Source: a virus (lineage: Duplodnaviria; Heunggongvirae; Uroviricota; Caudoviricetes). From it: a stretch of 27,186 bases of DNA. A program made the position numbers and the translations under genes. Of this stretch, positions 1-27,186 are shown piece after piece (positions within the stretch are counted from its first letter, which is position 1; every line of letters begins with the position of its first letter). The notes beneath the pieces were generated by a model, which made no database searches, was not told the origin of the DNA, and worked only from the letters and a program-made list of their open reading frames with translations. Where the stretch lies: positions 1 through 27,186 of IMG/VR virus record IMGVR_UViG_2537561936_000020. One strand, 5' to 3'.

Positions 1-630
1 AAGAAAATCGAAGACGCACAGCGTGCGGCCATTCTTCAGGACAAGGTTGCCTTGCTTCAGGGGGACCTGGCGAAAATCAATCCGCCGAAGCCTGTGGAAA
101 ATGGCAATGGCACCGGAGGTGATAAACCCAAAGACAACAAACCGCTCACAGACAGCAATACCGGTACACTACGCAGACTCAGCAAAATTGCTGATAACAC
201 AGGTAAGCTGGTTGATGAGACGAAAAAACGCATTGGCCCCGGCGATATTGTCTTTAAGAACCTGCCCCGCGCACTTGCTGTTCGTGGGGAGTGGCAGGAG
301 CGGAAGATTGCGCAGGTCGGTAAGCCTGCCCCCGCAATTAATATCACCCCCGTGGTCCCGGCTCCGCTGCCTCCGGCGCTGGTCCCTGTTGTTGCGGCCA
401 GCTCCCGCCCGGTGGCGGAGGCCATACGATCTCCAGTGGCATCAGTTCCTGTAACTTCCCGTAACCGGGAGCCTGTTGCCTCCGGATTTGGTGGTGAAAT
501 TCATGTTCATCTGCATAACGTTGTTACGCAGAATCCCCGCGAACTGGCGAAACTGGTCGGTGAAATGGTCAGGGCAGAAACGGAACGGCGCGCCCGTGCC
601 GGGCGTGGCAGTTTTTACGATAAAGATTGA
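1..630 (+). CDS. T: Tail tape measure protein, C-terminal part (5' end lies outside the window)
   Basis: Reading frame is open from base 1 and continuous with ORF 52..630. C-terminal sequence and its position directly upstream of a gpU homologue match P2 gpT from memory. Confidence 0.75.
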   Translation, partial: KKIEDAQRAAILQDKVALLQGDLAKINPPKPVENGNGTGGDKPKDNKPLTDSNTGTLRRLSKIADNTGKLVDETKKRIGPGDIVFKNLPRALAVRGEWQERKIAQVGKPAPAINITPVVPAPLPPALVPVVAASSRPVAEAIRSPVASVPVTSRNREPVASGFGGEIHVHLHNVVTQNPRELAKLVGEMVRAETERRARAGRGSFYDKD

Positions 631-636
631 GGAGTC

Positions 637-1131
637 ATGGCCATGATGATGATCTACGGCATGTTTGTTTTTGAGCTGCGCACACTGCCGCATCAGCAGT
701 TACAGCAAAACAAAAGCTGGCGGCATGTGAAAAATGAGCGCGTAAACCGCTCAGCAAGCTGGCAGTATATCGGTGCAGGTGATGATCGCATCGTGCTTTC
801 TGGCGTGCTTTATCCTGAAATTACAGGTGGCGAAGTGTCGCTTTCGCTGCTGACCACGCAGGCATATACAGGACGCCCCTGGCCTCTGATTGATGGTGTC
901 GGGCAGATTTACGGCATGTATGTACTGACTGAAACGAATACGACCCGCTCCGAGTTTGATCGCTACGGTAAGGCGAAAAAGATAGAATTTTCACTGACTC
1001 TTGAACGCTGTGATGAGGATTTGCGGGAGCGCCTGCAATCCTCATCGTTCAGTGATATGCTGTCCGGCTTCAAAGATAAGGTCACATCATCCCTTAACAG
1101 CGCGGCCAGCTCCGTTAAAGGGCTGTTTTGA
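637..1131 (+). CDS. U: Tail protein U (P2 gpU family)
   Basis: 164 aa. N-terminus (MMIYGMFVFELRTLPHQQLQ...WRH...GVLYPEITGG...WPLIDG) aligns with P2 gpU as recalled. Sits 6 bp after T. Confidence 0.85.
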   Translation: MAMMMIYGMFVFELRTLPHQQLQQNKSWRHVKNERVNRSASWQYIGAGDDRIVLSGVLYPEITGGEVSLSLLTTQAYTGRPWPLIDGVGQIYGMYVLTETNTTRSEFDRYGKAKKIEFSLTLERCDEDLRERLQSSSFSDMLSGFKDKVTSSLNSAASSVKGLF

Positions 1132-22087: not shown

Positions 22088-22473
22088 GGCTGGTATCCCG
22101 TCACGCGCTGCCACTCCTGCGAGAAGATGGCGGAAAGGCGGTTAAATTCAGCGGTGTATTCACTCAGCGAGGCACACCCGCCAGCAGTGCGATGCGCCAG
22201 CATTGCCGCGAATACGGAGGCCGGGGAGTCGTAATACGCCAGCAGTGATTCGCCGTGTGGTGTCAGGCAGTGCAACGCCAGCCCGTGTGGTGTGAAGTCC
22301 ACGCGGTAGCAGTCGTCTACTGTGAAATAAAGGGTGTCCGCATTCTCCGGTTTTGTGGTGCGTGCTCTGTTGTCACGACCACGGATGTAGAGATCAAATA
22401 ATCCCTGAAGAATGGGAGCCAGACGGGTGTCCTGTGTGCGCACCCATCTTGTGAAGTCATGAGCGTCAATCAT
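22084..22473 (-). CDS. Hypothetical early protein
   Basis: 129 aa ORF, translationally coupled to A. No recognisable motif. Confidence 0.55.
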   Translation of the reverse strand: MIDAHDFTRWVRTQDTRLAPILQGLFDLYIRGRDNRARTTKPENADTLYFTVDDCYRVDFTPHGLALHCLTPHGESLLAYYDSPASVFAAMLAHRTAGGCASLSEYTAEFNRLSAIFSQEWQRVTGYQP

Positions 22474-22545
22474 GCTGCAATTCTCTTTACTACAGATGTG
22501 CGAAGGCCTCCCGCCGCAAGGTGCAGGAAAGGCCTGGAACAGGAA

Positions 22546-22776
22546 TTAATGGAGTTTGTTTTGCTGCTGAAAGAGCTGCTGAAGCTCGCGCAGATCATCC
22601 GCCAGATAGCTGAAAACAGCGGATGAATAGAGGTTTGAAAGTTCGCAGCTACGCTCATGCAGCATATTGATGTGCATGATTTTAGCGACGCGGAATGCGC
22701 GGGAAAGTCTGCGGTTGATTTCAGTCTGGATGTGACGACGCTCCGCGATAGCGCGGTGCTGTTTGCGGTTTGCCAT
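22546..22776 (-). CDS. Hypothetical small basic protein
   Basis: 76 aa, protein-like composition; GAAGAGG 9 nt upstream of the ATG. Overlaps the long ORF 22470..23402 in another frame. Confidence 0.45.
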   Translation of the reverse strand: MANRKQHRAIAERRHIQTEINRRLSRAFRVAKIMHINMLHERSCELSNLYSSAVFSYLADDLRELQQLFQQQNKLH

Positions 22777-22958
22777 GGTGTTTGGCCTCTTCGTTTGTGA
22801 GTTTTTGGATACTCACCAACCAGAGTTGAGAATCTCGGGGTGGCGAGACGTACGGGGTTCTCAACACCGGCAAACGAAGAAACCGGCCCGACCGAAGTCG
22901 GCCCCGTACGCCCCACCATAATTCGTGTGCGAAAAAGACGTGGCAATACAGTACGCAC

Positions 22959-22979
22959 AAAAAAACCGCTGGCGCGGTT
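22959..22979 (-). terminator. Rho-independent terminator inside the early operon
   Basis: On the - strand AACCGC-GCCA-GCGGTT followed by TTTTTTT. Confidence 0.55.
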
Positions 22980-23089
22980 GTGCGCTTCGTTTGTCAGCAG
23001 GTTGAGAATCCCGGCACCCGTTTTATGAGGTGCAGCAGAAATGTAACCTGACTGATTGCGGCATGGCAAGCGGTTTTTTTGTGTGTGCA

Positions 23090-23402
23090 TGCTCTGATTT
23101 CTTACTGGTTCAGAAAAAAAATCAAAAACCTTGTCAATGCGTTGCAACAGCTCTTGCTGTATTGCTTCCGGCGTTTCCGGTTCGCCTGGCGCCTCCAATG
23201 TCGCGCAGAAATCAGCGATTTCATGATGGAGCGTCAGGCGAATGGCAGGAGCCGTGGTTCTGGCGTGCTCCAGCTCATCCAGCAATGCCAGCACCGCAGA
23301 CGGCGAGAGCATTGCGCGAAATGCCAGTAATTTTTGAGGTGTTGCCATTCGTTGCAGGGCAAATGCCAGTTCGCGTAGCTTCTGGTGGTTGATGGTGCTC
23401 AT
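23090..23402 (-). CDS. Hypothetical early protein (3' boundary uncertain)
   Basis: ATGA overlap with the upstream gene. First ~100 aa look protein-like; the ORF stays open to 22470 through a hairpin-rich segment of atypical composition. Confidence 0.4.
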
Positions 23403-23665
23403 GTTCTGGCTTCCTTCAGTAGCTGGTTAAACATGTGAGTAAGTGGATTGCTACACCCGAACGGCATCGGGTTTACGTGGTAAGAAGCCTGGCCTCCAGT
23501 TTTGCGAGCGCGACCACCTGTGCTGCGGTTTGTTCTGATGACTAAGCCGCCGCGCCAAAGTTGGCGTAACTCAGCATTAATGGCTGTGGTTGGAGTATTC
23601 AGTGCTGCTGCGATTTCTCCGCCGCTACAACCCGGATGGGTAGCGATGTAGTCCAGAATGGTCAT
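23399..23665 (-). CDS. Hypothetical protein, possible winged-helix DNA-binding fold
   Basis: 88 aa; coupled to its neighbours by overlapping stop/start codons. Confidence 0.5.
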   Translation of the reverse strand: MTILDYIATHPGCSGGEIAAALNTPTTAINAELRQLWRGGLVIRTNRSTGGRARKTGGQASYHVNPMPFGCSNPLTHMFNQLLKEART

Positions 23666-23865
23666 CTGCGTGGCTCCTGTACCTGTCGGATAAGATTCAC
23701 CCGCGCCACGTTGGTGGCGCAGAAATAAGTGCCGTCAGTGAGGTAGATGTGGTGTGCATCCTTTTCCGAACGATGTTTGTCGATAGTGGTAATCAGTCGT
23801 TCGTCGACCTCGTATTCGCGCCCTCTGGAGGTAAAGCGAACGACGGGAAAATGCTTAATTGCCAT
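23662..23865 (-). CDS. Hypothetical protein
   Basis: 67 aa ORF in the operon, with an ATGA overlap to the next gene. Confidence 0.45.
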   Translation of the reverse strand: MAIKHFPVVRFTSRGREYEVDERLITTIDKHRSEKDAHHIYLTDGTYFCATNVARVNLIRQVQEPRR

Positions 23866-23888
23866 TGCGCCCCCTTTGTCCAGTAACC

Positions 23889-24299
23889 CTATGCGTTAAA
23901 TACGGTGTGTCGGGCGTCATCAATGAATGCAACTTGAGAGCGCTCTATCAGGCGGAGATTTGTCAGAATTTCTGATTCCCTTATGGGGTGAGGAGTGATC
24001 AGGTATTTATCCTGTAACCCGGCGATAATGGTGTATCGCTGTAGCTCCGAGCCAATTGTGTAAATAAGGCGTCCGGTGTTAGACAAATCCAGTCCGGTGA
24101 CTGGTTGTGTTCTGAGAACCGCCAGTTCAGCATCCTGTTTTGCGATAATTTCGGCTGCTTCTGCCGTGACTCTTGCGACTATCAGTGTGTGGGTTGCGAC
24201 GTCCATATGATTATTTGCTAGGGCTTTTTTCGCTACTTCGTTTTCTGTCTTTGAAATTTCTTTCAGTGCTCTGATGATACCTTCTTCTTTTGCGTGCAT
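23889..24299 (-). CDS. Hypothetical protein
   Basis: 136 aa ORF in the early operon. Confidence 0.5.
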   Translation of the reverse strand: MHAKEEGIIRALKEISKTENEVAKKALANNHMDVATHTLIVARVTAEAAEIIAKQDAELAVLRTQPVTGLDLSNTGRLIYTIGSELQRYTIIAGLQDKYLITPHPIRESEILTNLRLIERSQVAFIDDARHTVFNA

Positions 24300-24393
24300 T
24301 TTTGTATCTCCGTTATTTGCGTGTGCGAATACCTCCGTTAATACGGATGGTTTTCACGTTTTCTTATTTAATTTGATGTTTTATTTGTATCGT

Positions 24394-24506
24394 TATTCAC
24401 CAGTGAAAAAACGTTCAATCTTTTTTACTGAATGAATAATTCGCATAATTCCAATGGCGCAGGCCACCGAAATAATCAGAACAAGCCATGAGATAAATAT
24501 ACTCAT
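24394..24506 (-). CDS. Small hydrophobic peptide (37 aa, single predicted TM helix)
   Basis: MSIFISWLVLIISVACAIGIMRIIHSVKKIERFFTGE, translated by hand. Its ATG overlaps the TGA of the upstream 80-aa gene (ATGA). Below the ORF-track size cut-off. Confidence 0.45.
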
Positions 24507-24745
24507 GCGATATTGCCCAGCTTATACGGTTCAATATGTTCCCCGCATTCTGCGGCACAGATCAGCTCGGAAAGTTCGTTAAGTGCATCCAGATCATCAG
24601 CGTAAAAAGCGACGTCATACAAACTCCGGATTGCCCTGGTCAATGAGTCACGGGCTGCACGTTCAGCATGAGCGCCTGATGCACTTAAGCGAAAATAAAA
24701 TCGTTCAAGTGCTTTGTTAATGAGAGTTTTATATTCTTTGCCCAT
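24503..24745 (-). CDS. Hypothetical protein
   Basis: 80 aa ORF in the early operon. Confidence 0.5.
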   Translation of the reverse strand: MGKEYKTLINKALERFYFRLSASGAHAERAARDSLTRAIRSLYDVAFYADDLDALNELSELICAAECGEHIEPYKLGNIA

Positions 24746-24756
24746 CGCAACGCCCT

Positions 24757-25035
24757 TTAATCTGCTTTCTGAATTTCAGCTTCTGAATCCATACAAATAA
24801 TTTCGATATATGGTTCATCGCCATTAACCTGACGTGCCTTTTCAGCTTCGCTAATGATTTCTCGCACGGTCTGGTACGGAAGCTCCACAGTCAGGCGCGT
24901 ACCGTTCAGATAAACGTAAGTAGCTGCGTTTTTTTCGGATGGAACAACTCCGTCAATGGCTGATGCGCGTAATAACAGTTCACCGCGAAAATCAATAAAA
25001 CGGATAAATACACCTTGTGCATGCTCTTTGGTCAT
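24757..25035 (-). CDS. Hypothetical protein
   Basis: 92 aa from the Met preceded by AGGTG; the ORF-track upstream extension was rejected. Confidence 0.5.
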   Translation of the reverse strand: MTKEHAQGVFIRFIDFRGELLLRASAIDGVVPSEKNAATYVYLNGTRLTVELPYQTVREIISEAEKARQVNGDEPYIEIICMDSEAEIQKAD

Positions 25036-25045
25036 AAAGCACCTG

Positions 25046-25387
25046 TTATAAATCAGCCTGTTTAATAAAACTTTGCCCACGAAGCAGACGATCAACCGTG
25101 CGAAGTGCTTCGTATAATGTGAAATCCTGCCCGAATTGATTGTCGCCGCAGCTCAATGCAAAAATGCGGTTTCCGGTAAACGGATTGCGTGGGCATTTGT
25201 GGACCACGATTCCAGCTTTCTCAATCAGCCAGGCATGCTCGCCGATTTGTTTTACTGGGTAGCCATCCGGCGTTGCGTGTGTATCACTCAGGCTGTAGCG
25301 GATGTTGCTGCGTGATGCACTGGTAGCGAAACGGTTAGCGTGGCGTTCAGCACCATTACGAAAGCGTGAATTACGTTGCTGTTTCAT
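25046..25387 (-). CDS. Hypothetical protein
   Basis: 113 aa; second gene of the early operon after cox. Confidence 0.5.
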   Translation of the reverse strand: MKQQRNSRFRNGAERHANRFATSASRSNIRYSLSDTHATPDGYPVKQIGEHAWLIEKAGIVVHKCPRNPFTGNRIFALSCGDNQFGQDFTLYEALRTVDRLLRGQSFIKQADL

Positions 25388-25405
25388 ATCAAAACTCCCT
25401 GCATC

Positions 25406-25732
25406 TCATGCAGCAAAATTAAGAAAGCCTAATCCCAAATCTTCCGCCAGCTTCTTGGCTTTCTTAAGCCAGTGATTGCGCCAATCTTTACGCTCAGGAG
25501 GAAGCTGTTTCGTTGCGTCATAGACCATTTCGAGCCACTCATTCCAAAGGATGAGAAGACGGCGCGAACTCCCTTCCTCGCCTAAAACCTCGCGCTCAGT
25601 GGTTAGAGGGATGAGTCGACGCTCTACCAACTTTCTTACGGCTGATTCGGTCTTACCTGTGCGGCGGGAAAACTCATCGACGGTGATGGGGTCTGGGATC
25701 TTAAACAATGCCCTCAATAGTTCTTCATTCAT
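25406..25732 (-). CDS. cox: Cox-like regulatory protein / excisionase
   Basis: 108 aa from MNEELL…PDPITVDEFSRRTGKTESAVRKLVERRLIPL…, resembling P2 Cox (…IPYQEFAKLIGKSTGAVRRMIDKGKLPVI…). Divergent from C. Confidence 0.75.
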   Translation of the reverse strand: MNEELLRALFKIPDPITVDEFSRRTGKTESAVRKLVERRLIPLTTEREVLGEEGSSRRLLILWNEWLEMVYDATKQLPPERKDWRNHWLKKAKKLAEDLGLGFLNFAA

Positions 25733-25827
25733 GTGATAATCTCCCTGTTTGGGGTATTTCTTGCGACGGATGCCCCAAATCAAACTCATTTGTATAAACA
25801 TTAATACAGACGTTGGAGAATTGCAAC
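25733..25827. promoter_or_regulatory. Divergent C / cox promoter-operator region
   Basis: Imperfect inverted repeat TTTGGGGTA…TGCCCCAAA (25748-25779) and an extended -10-like TGTATAAA (25791-25798) ahead of C. Confidence 0.45.
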
Positions 25828-26130
25828 ATGCGTATGACTATTGGAGAGCGCATAAAAATCATGCGTGAAAGCGAGAGACTTACTAGCCTCCCGGATACAG
25901 CAAAAATGCTTGGTTTAAACCGTGATGCTCTGTGGAGATATGAAAGCGGTAAAACTATCCCTAATGCTGAAGTAATTGAGCAAATACTAAACAACCCCAG
26001 ATTTGAGAAATATGCGTTGTGGTTTATGACTGGGAAAATTGCGCCTGAATCCGGGCAGATAGCTCCGGCTCTCGCACACTATGGGCAAGAGCCAACGGAC
26101 TTACCCCCATCCGAAAGGAAAATTGGCTAA
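25828..26130 (+). CDS. C: Immunity repressor C (P2 C-like HTH)
   Basis: …LWFMTGKIAPESGQIAPALAHYGQ… is near-identical to the P2 C C-terminus as recalled. Start among ATGs at 25813, 25828 and 25834 is uncertain. Confidence 0.85.
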   Translation: MRMTIGERIKIMRESERLTSLPDTAKMLGLNRDALWRYESGKTIPNAEVIEQILNNPRFEKYALWFMTGKIAPESGQIAPALAHYGQEPTDLPPSERKIG

Positions 26131-26196
26131 CCCTTTATTATTCTTACGTTTTACAAACTGGAAATGTCTTTCCTCGTTTCACCGGAGGGCTTGCCA

Positions 26197-27186
26197 ATGG
26201 CAATTAAAGCGCTCGATGGTGGACGGTATAAAGTGGATGTTAGACCGCGTGGCCGAAGTGGACGTCGGATTCAGCGGATTTTTAAGAAAAAGGCAGATGC
26301 AGTGGCCTTTGAGCGTTATGTTCTCAGCCACATGCACGATAAGGAATGGCTTGAAAAGCCAACAGAGCAACGTCATCTCTCAGATCTGCTTCCGTTATGG
26401 TGGGAATTGGGTGGACGCAATAAGCCATATGCTAACGGCGTTCTAACCAGGTTGAAAAAAATCATCAAAGAAATGAATGATCCAAGGGTTAGCCAGATTA
26501 ATGCTCGTTTCATGGCCGCTTATCGAAGCTCCCGTTTATCCTTGGGAGTAAAAGAGTCTACTGTTCGGCGTGATGAGTCGGATCTCGGAGGAATGTTTAC
26601 ACTCCTGGCAAATGCCGGGGAATTTCACGGAGAAAATCCGCTCCGCGCCCTCCCCTCTTTGAAACGAAAATCACCCGAAATGACGTATCTCACCACGGAA
26701 GAAATCGCCAAATTACTGGATGCAGTAAGCGGTGATGCCCGGCGGATTACGCTACTTTGTCTCAGTACTGGGGCGAGATGGGGAGAAGCGAAAAATCTGC
26801 GCGCGGAACACATCATCAATAATCGCGTGACGTTTAACAAAACTAAAAACGGAAAAGTTCGAATTATTCCTGTCTCTGATGAAGTTGTTAGTGAGATCAA
26901 AACAAAGAAATCCGGCCTTTTGTTTGACGTCAATTATGAGGAATATCGCAAGGTGCTTCGCAGTGTTAAGCCAGACCTACCAAAAGGACAGGCTGTACAT
27001 GTTCTACGCCATACCTTTGCTGCTCACTTTATGATTAATGGAGGAAATATACTTACGCTCCAGCGAATTATGGGGCACGCCACGATCCAGCAAACTATGA
27101 CCTATGCGCACCTCGCTCCTGATTTCCTCCAGGATGCAATTTCACTTAATCCGTTAAAAGGAGGCATCCACATTTCATCCACATAA
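26197..27186 (+). CDS. int: Tyrosine integrase (P2 Int-like)
   Basis: MAIKALDGGRYKVD…LSTGARWGEA…HVLRHTFAAHFMINGG…AHLAP. GGAGGG sits 7-13 nt upstream. The stop codon is the last three bases of the window. Confidence 0.9.
   Translation: MAIKALDGGRYKVDVRPRGRSGRRIQRIFKKKADAVAFERYVLSHMHDKEWLEKPTEQRHLSDLLPLWWELGGRNKPYANGVLTRLKKIIKEMNDPRVSQINARFMAAYRSSRLSLGVKESTVRRDESDLGGMFTLLANAGEFHGENPLRALPSLKRKSPEMTYLTTEEIAKLLDAVSGDARRITLLCLSTGARWGEAKNLRAEHIINNRVTFNKTKNGKVRIIPVSDEVVSEIKTKKSGLLFDVNYEEYRKVLRSVKPDLPKGQAVHVLRHTFAAHFMINGGNILTLQRIMGHATIQQTMTYAHLAPDFLQDAISLNPLKGGIHISST

Follow-up and report, generated by a model that had tools for sequence, protein, structure and literature searches.

An uncharacterised, phage-encoded small protein, predicted to span the membrane once and widespread in Escherichia coli prophages

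Does a 37-codon open reading frame (ORF) that starts inside the stop codon of its upstream gene encode a protein, and if so, what might this protein do? The question is raised by a locus in the virus record IMGVR_UViG_2537561936_000020 of IMG/VR (Duplodnaviria; Heunggongvirae; Uroviricota; Caudoviricetes), of which positions 1 to 27,186 were analysed; this whole stretch of 27,186 nucleotides is referred to as the window. The ORF lies on the minus strand at 24393..24506 including its TAA stop (coding part 24396..24506), reads ATG AGT ATA TTT ... GGT GAA TAA and encodes the single-helix membrane peptide MSIFISWLVLIISVACAIGIMRIIHSVKKIERFFTGE. A preliminary description of this DNA, made from the letters alone, had already reported exactly this peptide. 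It placed the ORF correctly, except that its start coordinate, 24394, is off by one to two bases and that the strand was missing. It also called the peptide unannotated, which has to be corrected: the identical protein is in RefSeq as WP_000021656.1, named hypothetical protein, and it is listed in phage GenBank records, in UniProt and, routinely, by the Prokaryotic Genome Annotation Pipeline (PGAP). In this study, we describe the ORF as the gene of an uncharacterised phage-encoded single-pass small membrane protein that is widespread in E. coli prophages.

Whether the ORF is a gene at all was judged from its conservation and from the selection acting on it. Directly upstream lies a gene for an 80-amino-acid protein of the DUF4754 family (24503..24745, minus strand; Pfam PF15946, full-length match, E=2.8e-54), and through near-identical DUF4754 sequences 86 close loci with 38 distinct nucleotide versions were recovered. 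Loss of the reading frame in homologous regions had been named beforehand as a possible refutation; the frame is kept there, being intact in 86 of 86 close loci (37 codons in 79, 45 codons in seven) and open in the distant loci L086, L088, L089, L092, L094 and L096 as well. Frameshifts were met only in L087 and L097, both low-quality records. An exhaustive phmmer scan over 1.84 billion representative proteins gave nine hits, all members of this family, among them forms of 41 amino acids with 68% (P0066), 57% (P0067/P0116) and 54% (P0069) identity. The 41-residue forms end in FTG[ED]xxxK. Their genes lie directly 3' of a DUF4754-type gene of 80-81 codons and share the same four-nucleotide overlap with it, while the flanking genes on both sides differ. 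Compared with the window, the upstream protein falls to 33-40% identity in the distant loci; the peptide is still 54-68% identical.

The peptide is under purifying selection. Pairwise ratios of non-synonymous to synonymous change (Nei-Gojobori dN/dS) range from 0.23 to 0.38, with 0.77-0.85 differences per synonymous site, which is near saturation, and 0.24-0.28 per non-synonymous site. Polymorphism among 36 distinct sequences leads to the same result. Here, 41 synonymous and 49 non-synonymous variants stand against 25 and 86 available sites, respectively, so that the corresponding ratio of polymorphisms (pN/pS) is 0.35 in the frame of the peptide (binomial p=1.2e-6); the two remaining forward frames give 1.08 and 1.80. 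The peptide frame is always open, one antisense frame is free of stops in five of nine representatives and the other four frames contain stops throughout. An overlapping GTG-initiated ORF of 47 codons (24415..24558, minus strand) and the ORFs of the plus strand have a pN/pS of at least 1 and stops in relatives, and were set aside as by-products. From the sequence comparisons we regard it as almost certain that the ORF is a real, translated gene.

Some records of the same region proved unreliable. Phage 503458 (NC_049341.1 / CP025874.1; positions 100..800 of locus L087) has frameshifts in the DUF4754 gene as well as in the peptide ORF, and its replication gene is annotated in truncated form. 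It had come up as a variant of 57% identity and was discarded, the record being full of frameshifts in both genes; it looks error-prone and unfit for conservation arguments. Many 'long DUF4754' database proteins of 103-128 amino acids (P0001, P0004, P0016, P0017, P0022, P0033 and P0040), mostly from raw-read assemblies, are artefacts and not natural fusions: a frameshift lets their reading run on into the peptide region or into its alternative frame.

The junction with the upstream gene is as the preliminary description had it. The ATG of the peptide (24506-24504) lies over the TGA of DUF4754 (24505-24503), and the resulting ATGA overlap (24503..24506, minus strand) is kept in ten of the ten divergent representatives examined. 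Overlaps of one to four nucleotides are common among co-directional small ORFs of enterobacteria (PMC11188072). In the window, the Shine-Dalgarno (SD) match of the peptide is CUGGG, which at -4.6 kcal/mol is weak, though comparable to the matches of the DUF4754 gene (-4.8 kcal/mol) and of the 92-amino-acid gene before it (-3.8 kcal/mol). In the distant variants, matches that resemble GAGGAG or contain GGGG reach -6.9 to -8.5 kcal/mol; they are suitably spaced and fall within the last codons of the upstream gene. Termination-reinitiation is an established mechanism of coupling, and we infer it here because the ATGA is invariant and SD matches lie in the last codons of the upstream gene. Translation of the peptide would thus most likely begin by termination-reinitiation at the ATGA junction, aided by a weak to moderate SD inside the end of DUF4754.

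Two homopolymers lie in the last third of the gene. A T6 homopolymer covers codons 32-34 (24406..24411, minus strand), and a T5 allele, present in seven of the 86 loci and in at least three sequence backgrounds, shifts the frame and produces the 45-amino-acid variant ending in ...ERFSLVNNDTNKTSN. An A6 homopolymer in codons 27-29 (24422..24427, minus strand) has an A5 allele (P0064; RefSeq WP_249941610.1), which leads into the same alternative frame as T5. The 45-residue frameshift variants carry a hydrophilic tail. Phages PhiR44_2 and Chuche align with the peptide to residue 33 only, which fits the same kind of changed C-terminus. These homopolymer-length alleles may represent either true polymorphism or recurrent sequencing error.

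Concerning the product, a model calculated with AlphaFold2 (AF2) from an alignment of 15 family sequences is one continuous helix from residue 2 to residue 35, with a mean predicted local distance difference test (pLDDT) score of 89.4. The best 19-residue Kyte-Doolittle window, residues 3-21, has a mean of 2.68 (2.7-3.0 in the variants) and so clears the membrane-span threshold over the length, at least some 19 residues, that a span calls for. Residues 1-21 are free of charge. The tail contains R22, K28, K29 and R32 against E31 and E37 and has a net charge of +2, and in four of four variant types the charge after the span lies between +1 and +3. The net positive tail segment RIIHSVKKIERFFT reaches a hydrophobic moment of 0.72 (0.41-0.56 in the variants). 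The hydrophobic helix and basic tail of the preliminary description are therefore both present, and membrane insertion is very likely. Since charges occur only after residue 21, the positive-inside rule predicts an N-out/C-in topology. The product would be a bitopic inner-membrane peptide of 37 residues with its uncharged N-terminus facing the periplasm, a membrane span of residues 2-21 and a conserved basic amphipathic extension (residues 22-35) close to the membrane on the cytoplasmic side.

Residue conservation was scored over 68 distinct full-length family members. M1, S6, W7, L10, I23, I24, K28, I30 and F34 are invariant, I11, A17, G19, I20 and E31 nearly so, and positions 5, 8, 9, 15, 25-27, 29, 32, 33 and 36 vary. 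The entropy of the alignment columns rises and falls with a periodicity of about 105 degrees per residue (permutation p=0.006). This periodicity indicates that one face of the helix, made up of S6/W7, L10, S/A13, A17, G19/I20, I23/I24, K28, I30/E31 and F34, is conserved over its full length, from the end facing the periplasm down to the tail in the cytoplasm. Within the membrane part it contains the small residues S6, S/A13, A17 and G19. A conserved face of small residues is the pattern expected for helix-helix packing, either with a partner or with a second copy of the peptide.

No known family accounts for the peptide. Scans of the peptide and 15 aligned family members against Pfam, PHROGs, NCBIfam, PADLOC and PDB sequences gave hits at chance level only. 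With regard to known defence and exclusion proteins, the peptide has no PADLOC hit and DUF4754 only one at chance level. A lipoprotein or signal peptide, suggested by the motif SVAC, was rejected: no lysine or arginine precedes residue 22, and family members replace C16 by M, F, S or I and A15 by V, L, I or T. A holin was rejected as well, as the peptide has no corresponding Pfam or PHROGs hit and the lysis cassette lies in the late region, where the holin, endolysin and spanin genes of the prophage are found more than 10 kb from the ORF.

The gene is common in E. coli. A 381-nucleotide query covering DUF4754 and the ORF found matches in 1385 of 5426 complete E. coli genomes (~25%), including O104:H4 and O157:H7 strains; the copy of O157:H7 ATCC 43894 is WP_000021655.1. 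Among the 40 matches listed, the position of the peptide is annotated as hypothetical protein in nearly all. Other names are given by phage P88, in which gp07 (YP_009113050.1) is a 'membrane protein' at this ORF, by the record of phage vB_EcoM-569R5 ('putative membrane protein') and by UniProt, which calls one member 'Prophage membrane protein'. The exact sequence is found on at least 1000 contigs. In the literature, nothing specific to this gene was found. The DUF4754 family belongs to Escherichia, together with a handful of records from Salmonella, Shigella, Citrobacter phages and E. albertii. Further searches stayed within this range. A single-sequence DUF4754 search aimed at wider taxa returned close relatives only, a search with a divergent 80-amino-acid DUF4754 member two proteins, and a profile search 79 proteins, essentially all from Escherichia; a scan of genome contigs gave two loci only, and a profile-based scan of viral loci recovered the same 80 contigs without increasing diversity. 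One 226-kb contig labelled Vagococcus sp. WN89Y (L085, NZ_JBQPOM010000071.1) carries an E. coli-type DUF4754 gene (98% identical) and the peptide gene; its Firmicute label is most likely due to contamination or assembly mislabelling.

The 1.9 kb around the ORF are 100% identical to the E. coli chromosome NZ_CM151354.1, in which the ORF lies within a complete P2-family prophage inserted beside pheL/pheA. Among named phages, P88 and further members of Xuanwuvirus (Peduoviridae) come closest, and the ORF belongs to a P88-type (Xuanwuvirus, P2-family) prophage adjoining pheA. On the same strand the genes follow one another in the order cox family, DUF4761, 92-amino-acid gene, DUF4754, 37-codon ORF and, after a gap of 93 nucleotides, 136-amino-acid gene, 67-amino-acid gene, MarR-type gene, ash-family pseudogene, derepression protein, 129-amino-acid gene and gpA replication endonuclease. 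According to the RefSeq annotation of the 100% identical record, the cox-family gene (25406..25732, minus strand) is the first of this operon, and a C-type repressor (25828..26130, plus strand) and the integrase (26197..27186, plus strand) diverge from it. The 136-amino-acid protein (23889..24299, minus strand; phrog_9338, unknown function) occupies a slot that is variable among related prophages and is filled by unrelated genes in L088-L097 and in P88.

This layout matches the early (Pe) operon of phage P2, and gene order thus bears out the temperate-phage early operon of the preliminary description. By analogy with P2, early lytic, repressor-controlled expression is probable. The ORF would be transcribed in an early lytic operon running from cox to the gpA replication endonuclease. 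In the repressed lysogen it would stay off; infection or derepression would switch it on early. Predicted intrinsic terminators and promoters near the ORF are at chance level in number; the sole hit is a conserved hairpin, described below, when read on the opposite strand.

Elsewhere in the same operon, in the stretch that separates the ash-family pseudogene from the gene of the derepression protein, two RNA families match next to each other on the minus strand, both above their Rfam gathering scores: the C4 antisense RNA (22836..22923; 79.2 bits, E=2.6e-15) and the Hfq-binding RNA isrK (22959..23033; 62 bits, E=2.5e-12). The pair suggests an RNA immunity or antirepressor control element of the P1/P4 style in a P2-type prophage. 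A 310-codon ORF at 22470..23402 (minus strand) is probably spurious because it spans both matches.

What could such a peptide do? The preliminary description had proposed host killing, division inhibition or exclusion. As an analogy this is reasonable, even though no known family lends it sequence support. Several roles are compatible with the data, namely inhibition of division or envelope synthesis, early superinfection exclusion, pairing with DUF4754 and anchoring of a phage process. The overall explanation that we favour, and to which we would give about an even chance, draws on analogy with other phages: the peptide may be an early-lytic small inner-membrane effector that binds a membrane protein. 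It is best supported because the early-operon position, a membrane helix conserved on one face and a dispensable extreme C-terminus all point to it. The peptide would bind and modulate an inner-membrane protein of host or phage during early lytic development, much as PhiNM1 Gp11 and SP01 gp56, two small membrane proteins made early in infection, act to block division and cell-wall synthesis. Taken separately, action through a membrane protein partner, whose existence we infer, has in our estimate somewhat less than an even chance. A specific inhibitor of division or envelope synthesis is an unlikely identity for the peptide, and to name the process that is hit would be a guess.

Several observations weigh against an early effector with a membrane partner. 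Family, structure-sequence and Fil comparisons found no homology to characterised proteins. Frameshift alleles that swap the last four to nine residues persist, apparently in isolated phages too, so that plaques can form without the exact C-terminus and possibly without the gene altogether. The SD of the window, at -4.6 kcal/mol, is weak. Early-only timing is deduced from gene order, and an internal promoter is possible, though promoter-like hits are at chance level. Alleles of the peptide and of DUF4754 are shuffled, as detailed below, which argues against a tightly co-evolving complex of the two. Finally, the narrow host range, Escherichia and a few close relatives, limits the power of comparison.

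Two phage proteins serve as models for the favoured explanation. Gp11 of the Staphylococcus phage PhiNM1 is a small membrane early protein that binds MurG and DivIC (PMC11237401). It shares with the peptide its origin from a phage early gene and its nature as a small membrane protein, and its membrane-associated host targets, through which it acts on the evidence of its authors, provide our working model. It differs in its Gram-positive host and in that its phenotype and targets are experimental, whereas the peptide is known from sequence alone; a sequence relation between the two was not found, no direct comparison having been made. The 9.3-kDa membrane protein gp56 of the Bacillus phage SP01 blocks late divisome recruitment via DivIC/FtsL (bioRxiv 10.1101/2020.02.06.938217). 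It too is a small phage membrane protein, is made during infection and acts by helix and protein contacts with bitopic membrane proteins. However, gp56 is about twice as large, comes from a lytic phage and depends on an essential C-terminal domain, whereas the tail of the peptide has only about 15 residues, and no sequence similarity is known.

Within the Peduoviridae, the closest parallel in position is the pair Fil and Dhr of phage 186. Their small, overlapping genes lie in the early operon after apl and cII and just before an intergenic structured element, the terminator tR1. They are annotated as host-directed (division block and host replication block, respectively), Fil with the words 'overexpression blocks cell division'. 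Unlike the peptide, Fil (75 amino acids; a soluble counterpart) and Dhr (66 amino acids) are not membrane-spanning, and the element downstream of the peptide gene is no terminator on the operon strand. BLASTP of the peptide against Fil found no alignment at E<=100; the resemblance between the C-terminus of Fil, IIRIVHFVIKGV, and IMRIIHSVKKIE of the peptide is thus due to chance. P2 carries Orf78 and B at the corresponding place. Kil of phage lambda, with 47 amino acids, inhibits FtsZ via ZipA (PMC3961180). Like the peptide, it is a very small product of an early transcript of a temperate coliphage, and it is dispensable and host-directed. In contrast to the peptide, Kil is described as a soluble helix-turn-helix peptide rather than a membrane span (PMC11762379), and it has no similarity to the peptide.

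Two bacterial groups share the architecture of the peptide. Type I toxins (Hok/Gef, Ldr, TisB, Ibs, ShoB) resemble it in size (19-50 amino acids) and in their single hydrophobic inner-membrane helix, but have their own promoter, a structured 5' untranslated region and an antisense RNA, whereas the ORF of the peptide is coupled inside an operon. A type I toxin organisation was rejected, given that the ORF starts inside the upstream stop codon and promoter-like hits stay at chance level. Moreover, type I toxin profiles of Pfam and NCBIfam gave no hit at E<=0.1 for 15 family members, and an Rfam scan of 23000-26200 no RNA of the Sok, Rdl, Sib or IstR type. The N-terminal region of TatA/TatE likewise has a short membrane helix in N-out orientation that leads directly into a basic amphipathic one, a likeness of architecture only. 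The NCBIfam hits to TatA/TatE are below threshold (12.4-13.5 bits against a cutoff of 104, E 0.05-0.11), and the peptide differs from these proteins in its straight AF2 helix, which has no L-shaped hinge, and in the absence of the FG motif of the TatA hinge.

Among the other explanations, one takes DUF4754 and the peptide as a two-protein module in which the peptide tethers or receives DUF4754 at the membrane, or DUF4754 restrains a membrane-damaging peptide. Cassettes with the antitoxin first and the toxin second, such as ghoS-ghoT, provide a precedent. DUF4754 is always immediately 5' of the peptide gene in our data. The peptide was never found without a preceding DUF4754-type gene of 80 amino acids, and the two genes stay adjacent with their ATGA overlap while both flanks are mosaic. 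A soluble protein followed by a membrane protein with a four-nucleotide overlap is also the order of many toxin-antitoxin cassettes, and the AF2 model of DUF4754 is indeed soluble and all-helical (pLDDT 90.5; helices 3-48 and 52-66, followed by an extended C-terminal tail). However, identical 41-residue peptide alleles are joined to DUF4754 alleles that are only 39-42% identical to each other (L088 against L089, L092 against L094). Recombination thus separates the two genes, and these allele pairs place a mosaic recombination boundary at or very near the ATGA junction. Such shuffling in place of co-evolution weakens the case for a specific complex. In addition, an autonomous promoter signal was not found, neither protein matches toxin-antitoxin models of PADLOC or Pfam, and fold searches with DUF4754 in PDB and BFVD gave generic helical bundles only (E>0.4) without a functional match. 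We therefore consider a two-protein module improbable.

Superinfection exclusion, in which the inner-membrane peptide would block DNA entry of related or other phages, has an equally small chance of being the function. The early membrane proteins Imm and Sp of phage T4 block DNA entry in this way. The predicted inner-membrane location agrees with such a role, as do the narrow, lineage-specific distribution and the mosaic surroundings, which are typical of accessory genes. Its place in a repressor-controlled early operon speaks against it, since the peptide would not be made in the stable lysogen, whereas the known exclusion genes of P2, old and tin, are expressed in the lysogen and located elsewhere. 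The missing PADLOC hit points in the same direction.

Less probable still is a membrane anchor or assembly factor that tethers replication or another early phage protein and is not directed at the host. The location in the early operon near the replication gene would suit it, and the one conserved helix face suggests a protein partner that could be phage-encoded. But the surrounding early genes are variable, so that only DUF4754 is evident as a constant phage partner, and P2 and 186 replicate without a homologue.

A further explanation holds that passage of the ribosome matters and not the product, the ORF serving to prevent polarity or to control a downstream hairpin or gene. There is such a hairpin. 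The gap of 93 nucleotides after the peptide stop contains a conserved element of about 45 nucleotides (24315..24360, minus strand), whose core hairpin UCCGU-AUUA-ACGGA (24334..24347, minus strand) is followed by GG-UAUUCGCACACG. Its consensus is GAAAAC-AUCCGY-loop-RCGGAGG-UAUUCGCACACG. All related loci examined, the distant L088, L092 and L096 among them, retain the element irrespective of the gene that follows. The stem of five base pairs shows one compensatory change from C-G to U-A and three single changes, all giving G.U wobbles that are valid only on the operon strand. As a U-run is absent on that strand, the hairpin is not an ordinary terminator, although its position is analogous to that of tR1 of 186 and of the putative terminator after gene B of P2. 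A conserved hairpin 45 nucleotides downstream and the tight coupling to the upstream gene speak for a role of translation as such. Nevertheless, we consider it very unlikely, because the amino-acid sequence itself is under purifying selection and because relatives of 54% identity still have the hydrophobic span, the amphipathic pattern and a basic residue 22, which is R or K in 64 of 68 variants. Weakest of all is the view that the ORF arose by chance in AT-rich DNA or is a product of faulty annotation: the ORF is short, matches no family model and has a weak SD in the window, and AT-rich sequence biases random ORFs toward hydrophobicity and readily yields short hydrophobic ones (PMC11188072), but the frame-specific synonymous excess and the conservation at 54-68% identity across diverged prophages effectively refute this idea, to which we attach next to no credence.

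The existence of the gene was already known in databases. What is added here is a well-defined family that evolves under purifying selection and for which Pfam, PHROGs, NCBIfam and PADLOC have no profile, its lock of four nucleotides to DUF4754 and its presence in some 25% of complete E. coli genomes, the O157:H7 and O104:H4 lineages among them. Time and again, small membrane proteins encoded by phage early genes have proved to be precise inhibitors of essential envelope machines. A peptide of 37 residues whose conserved face is obvious can be made, mutated and screened at little cost. A host target, if there is one, could lead to a druggable site; otherwise the peptide would be one more accessory small protein. 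The boldest reading, which we advance as a long shot, is that the peptide, with or without DUF4754, founds a new family of host-takeover factors of enterobacterial phages. Its helix would dock by the small-residue face onto an essential inner-membrane machine, either the divisome (FtsB/L/Q/W) or lipid II synthesis and flipping (MraY/MurJ/MurG), and arrest it early in P2-type infection. In that case, a quarter of E. coli genomes would carry a Gram-negative equivalent of PhiNM1 Gp11 and SP01 gp56.

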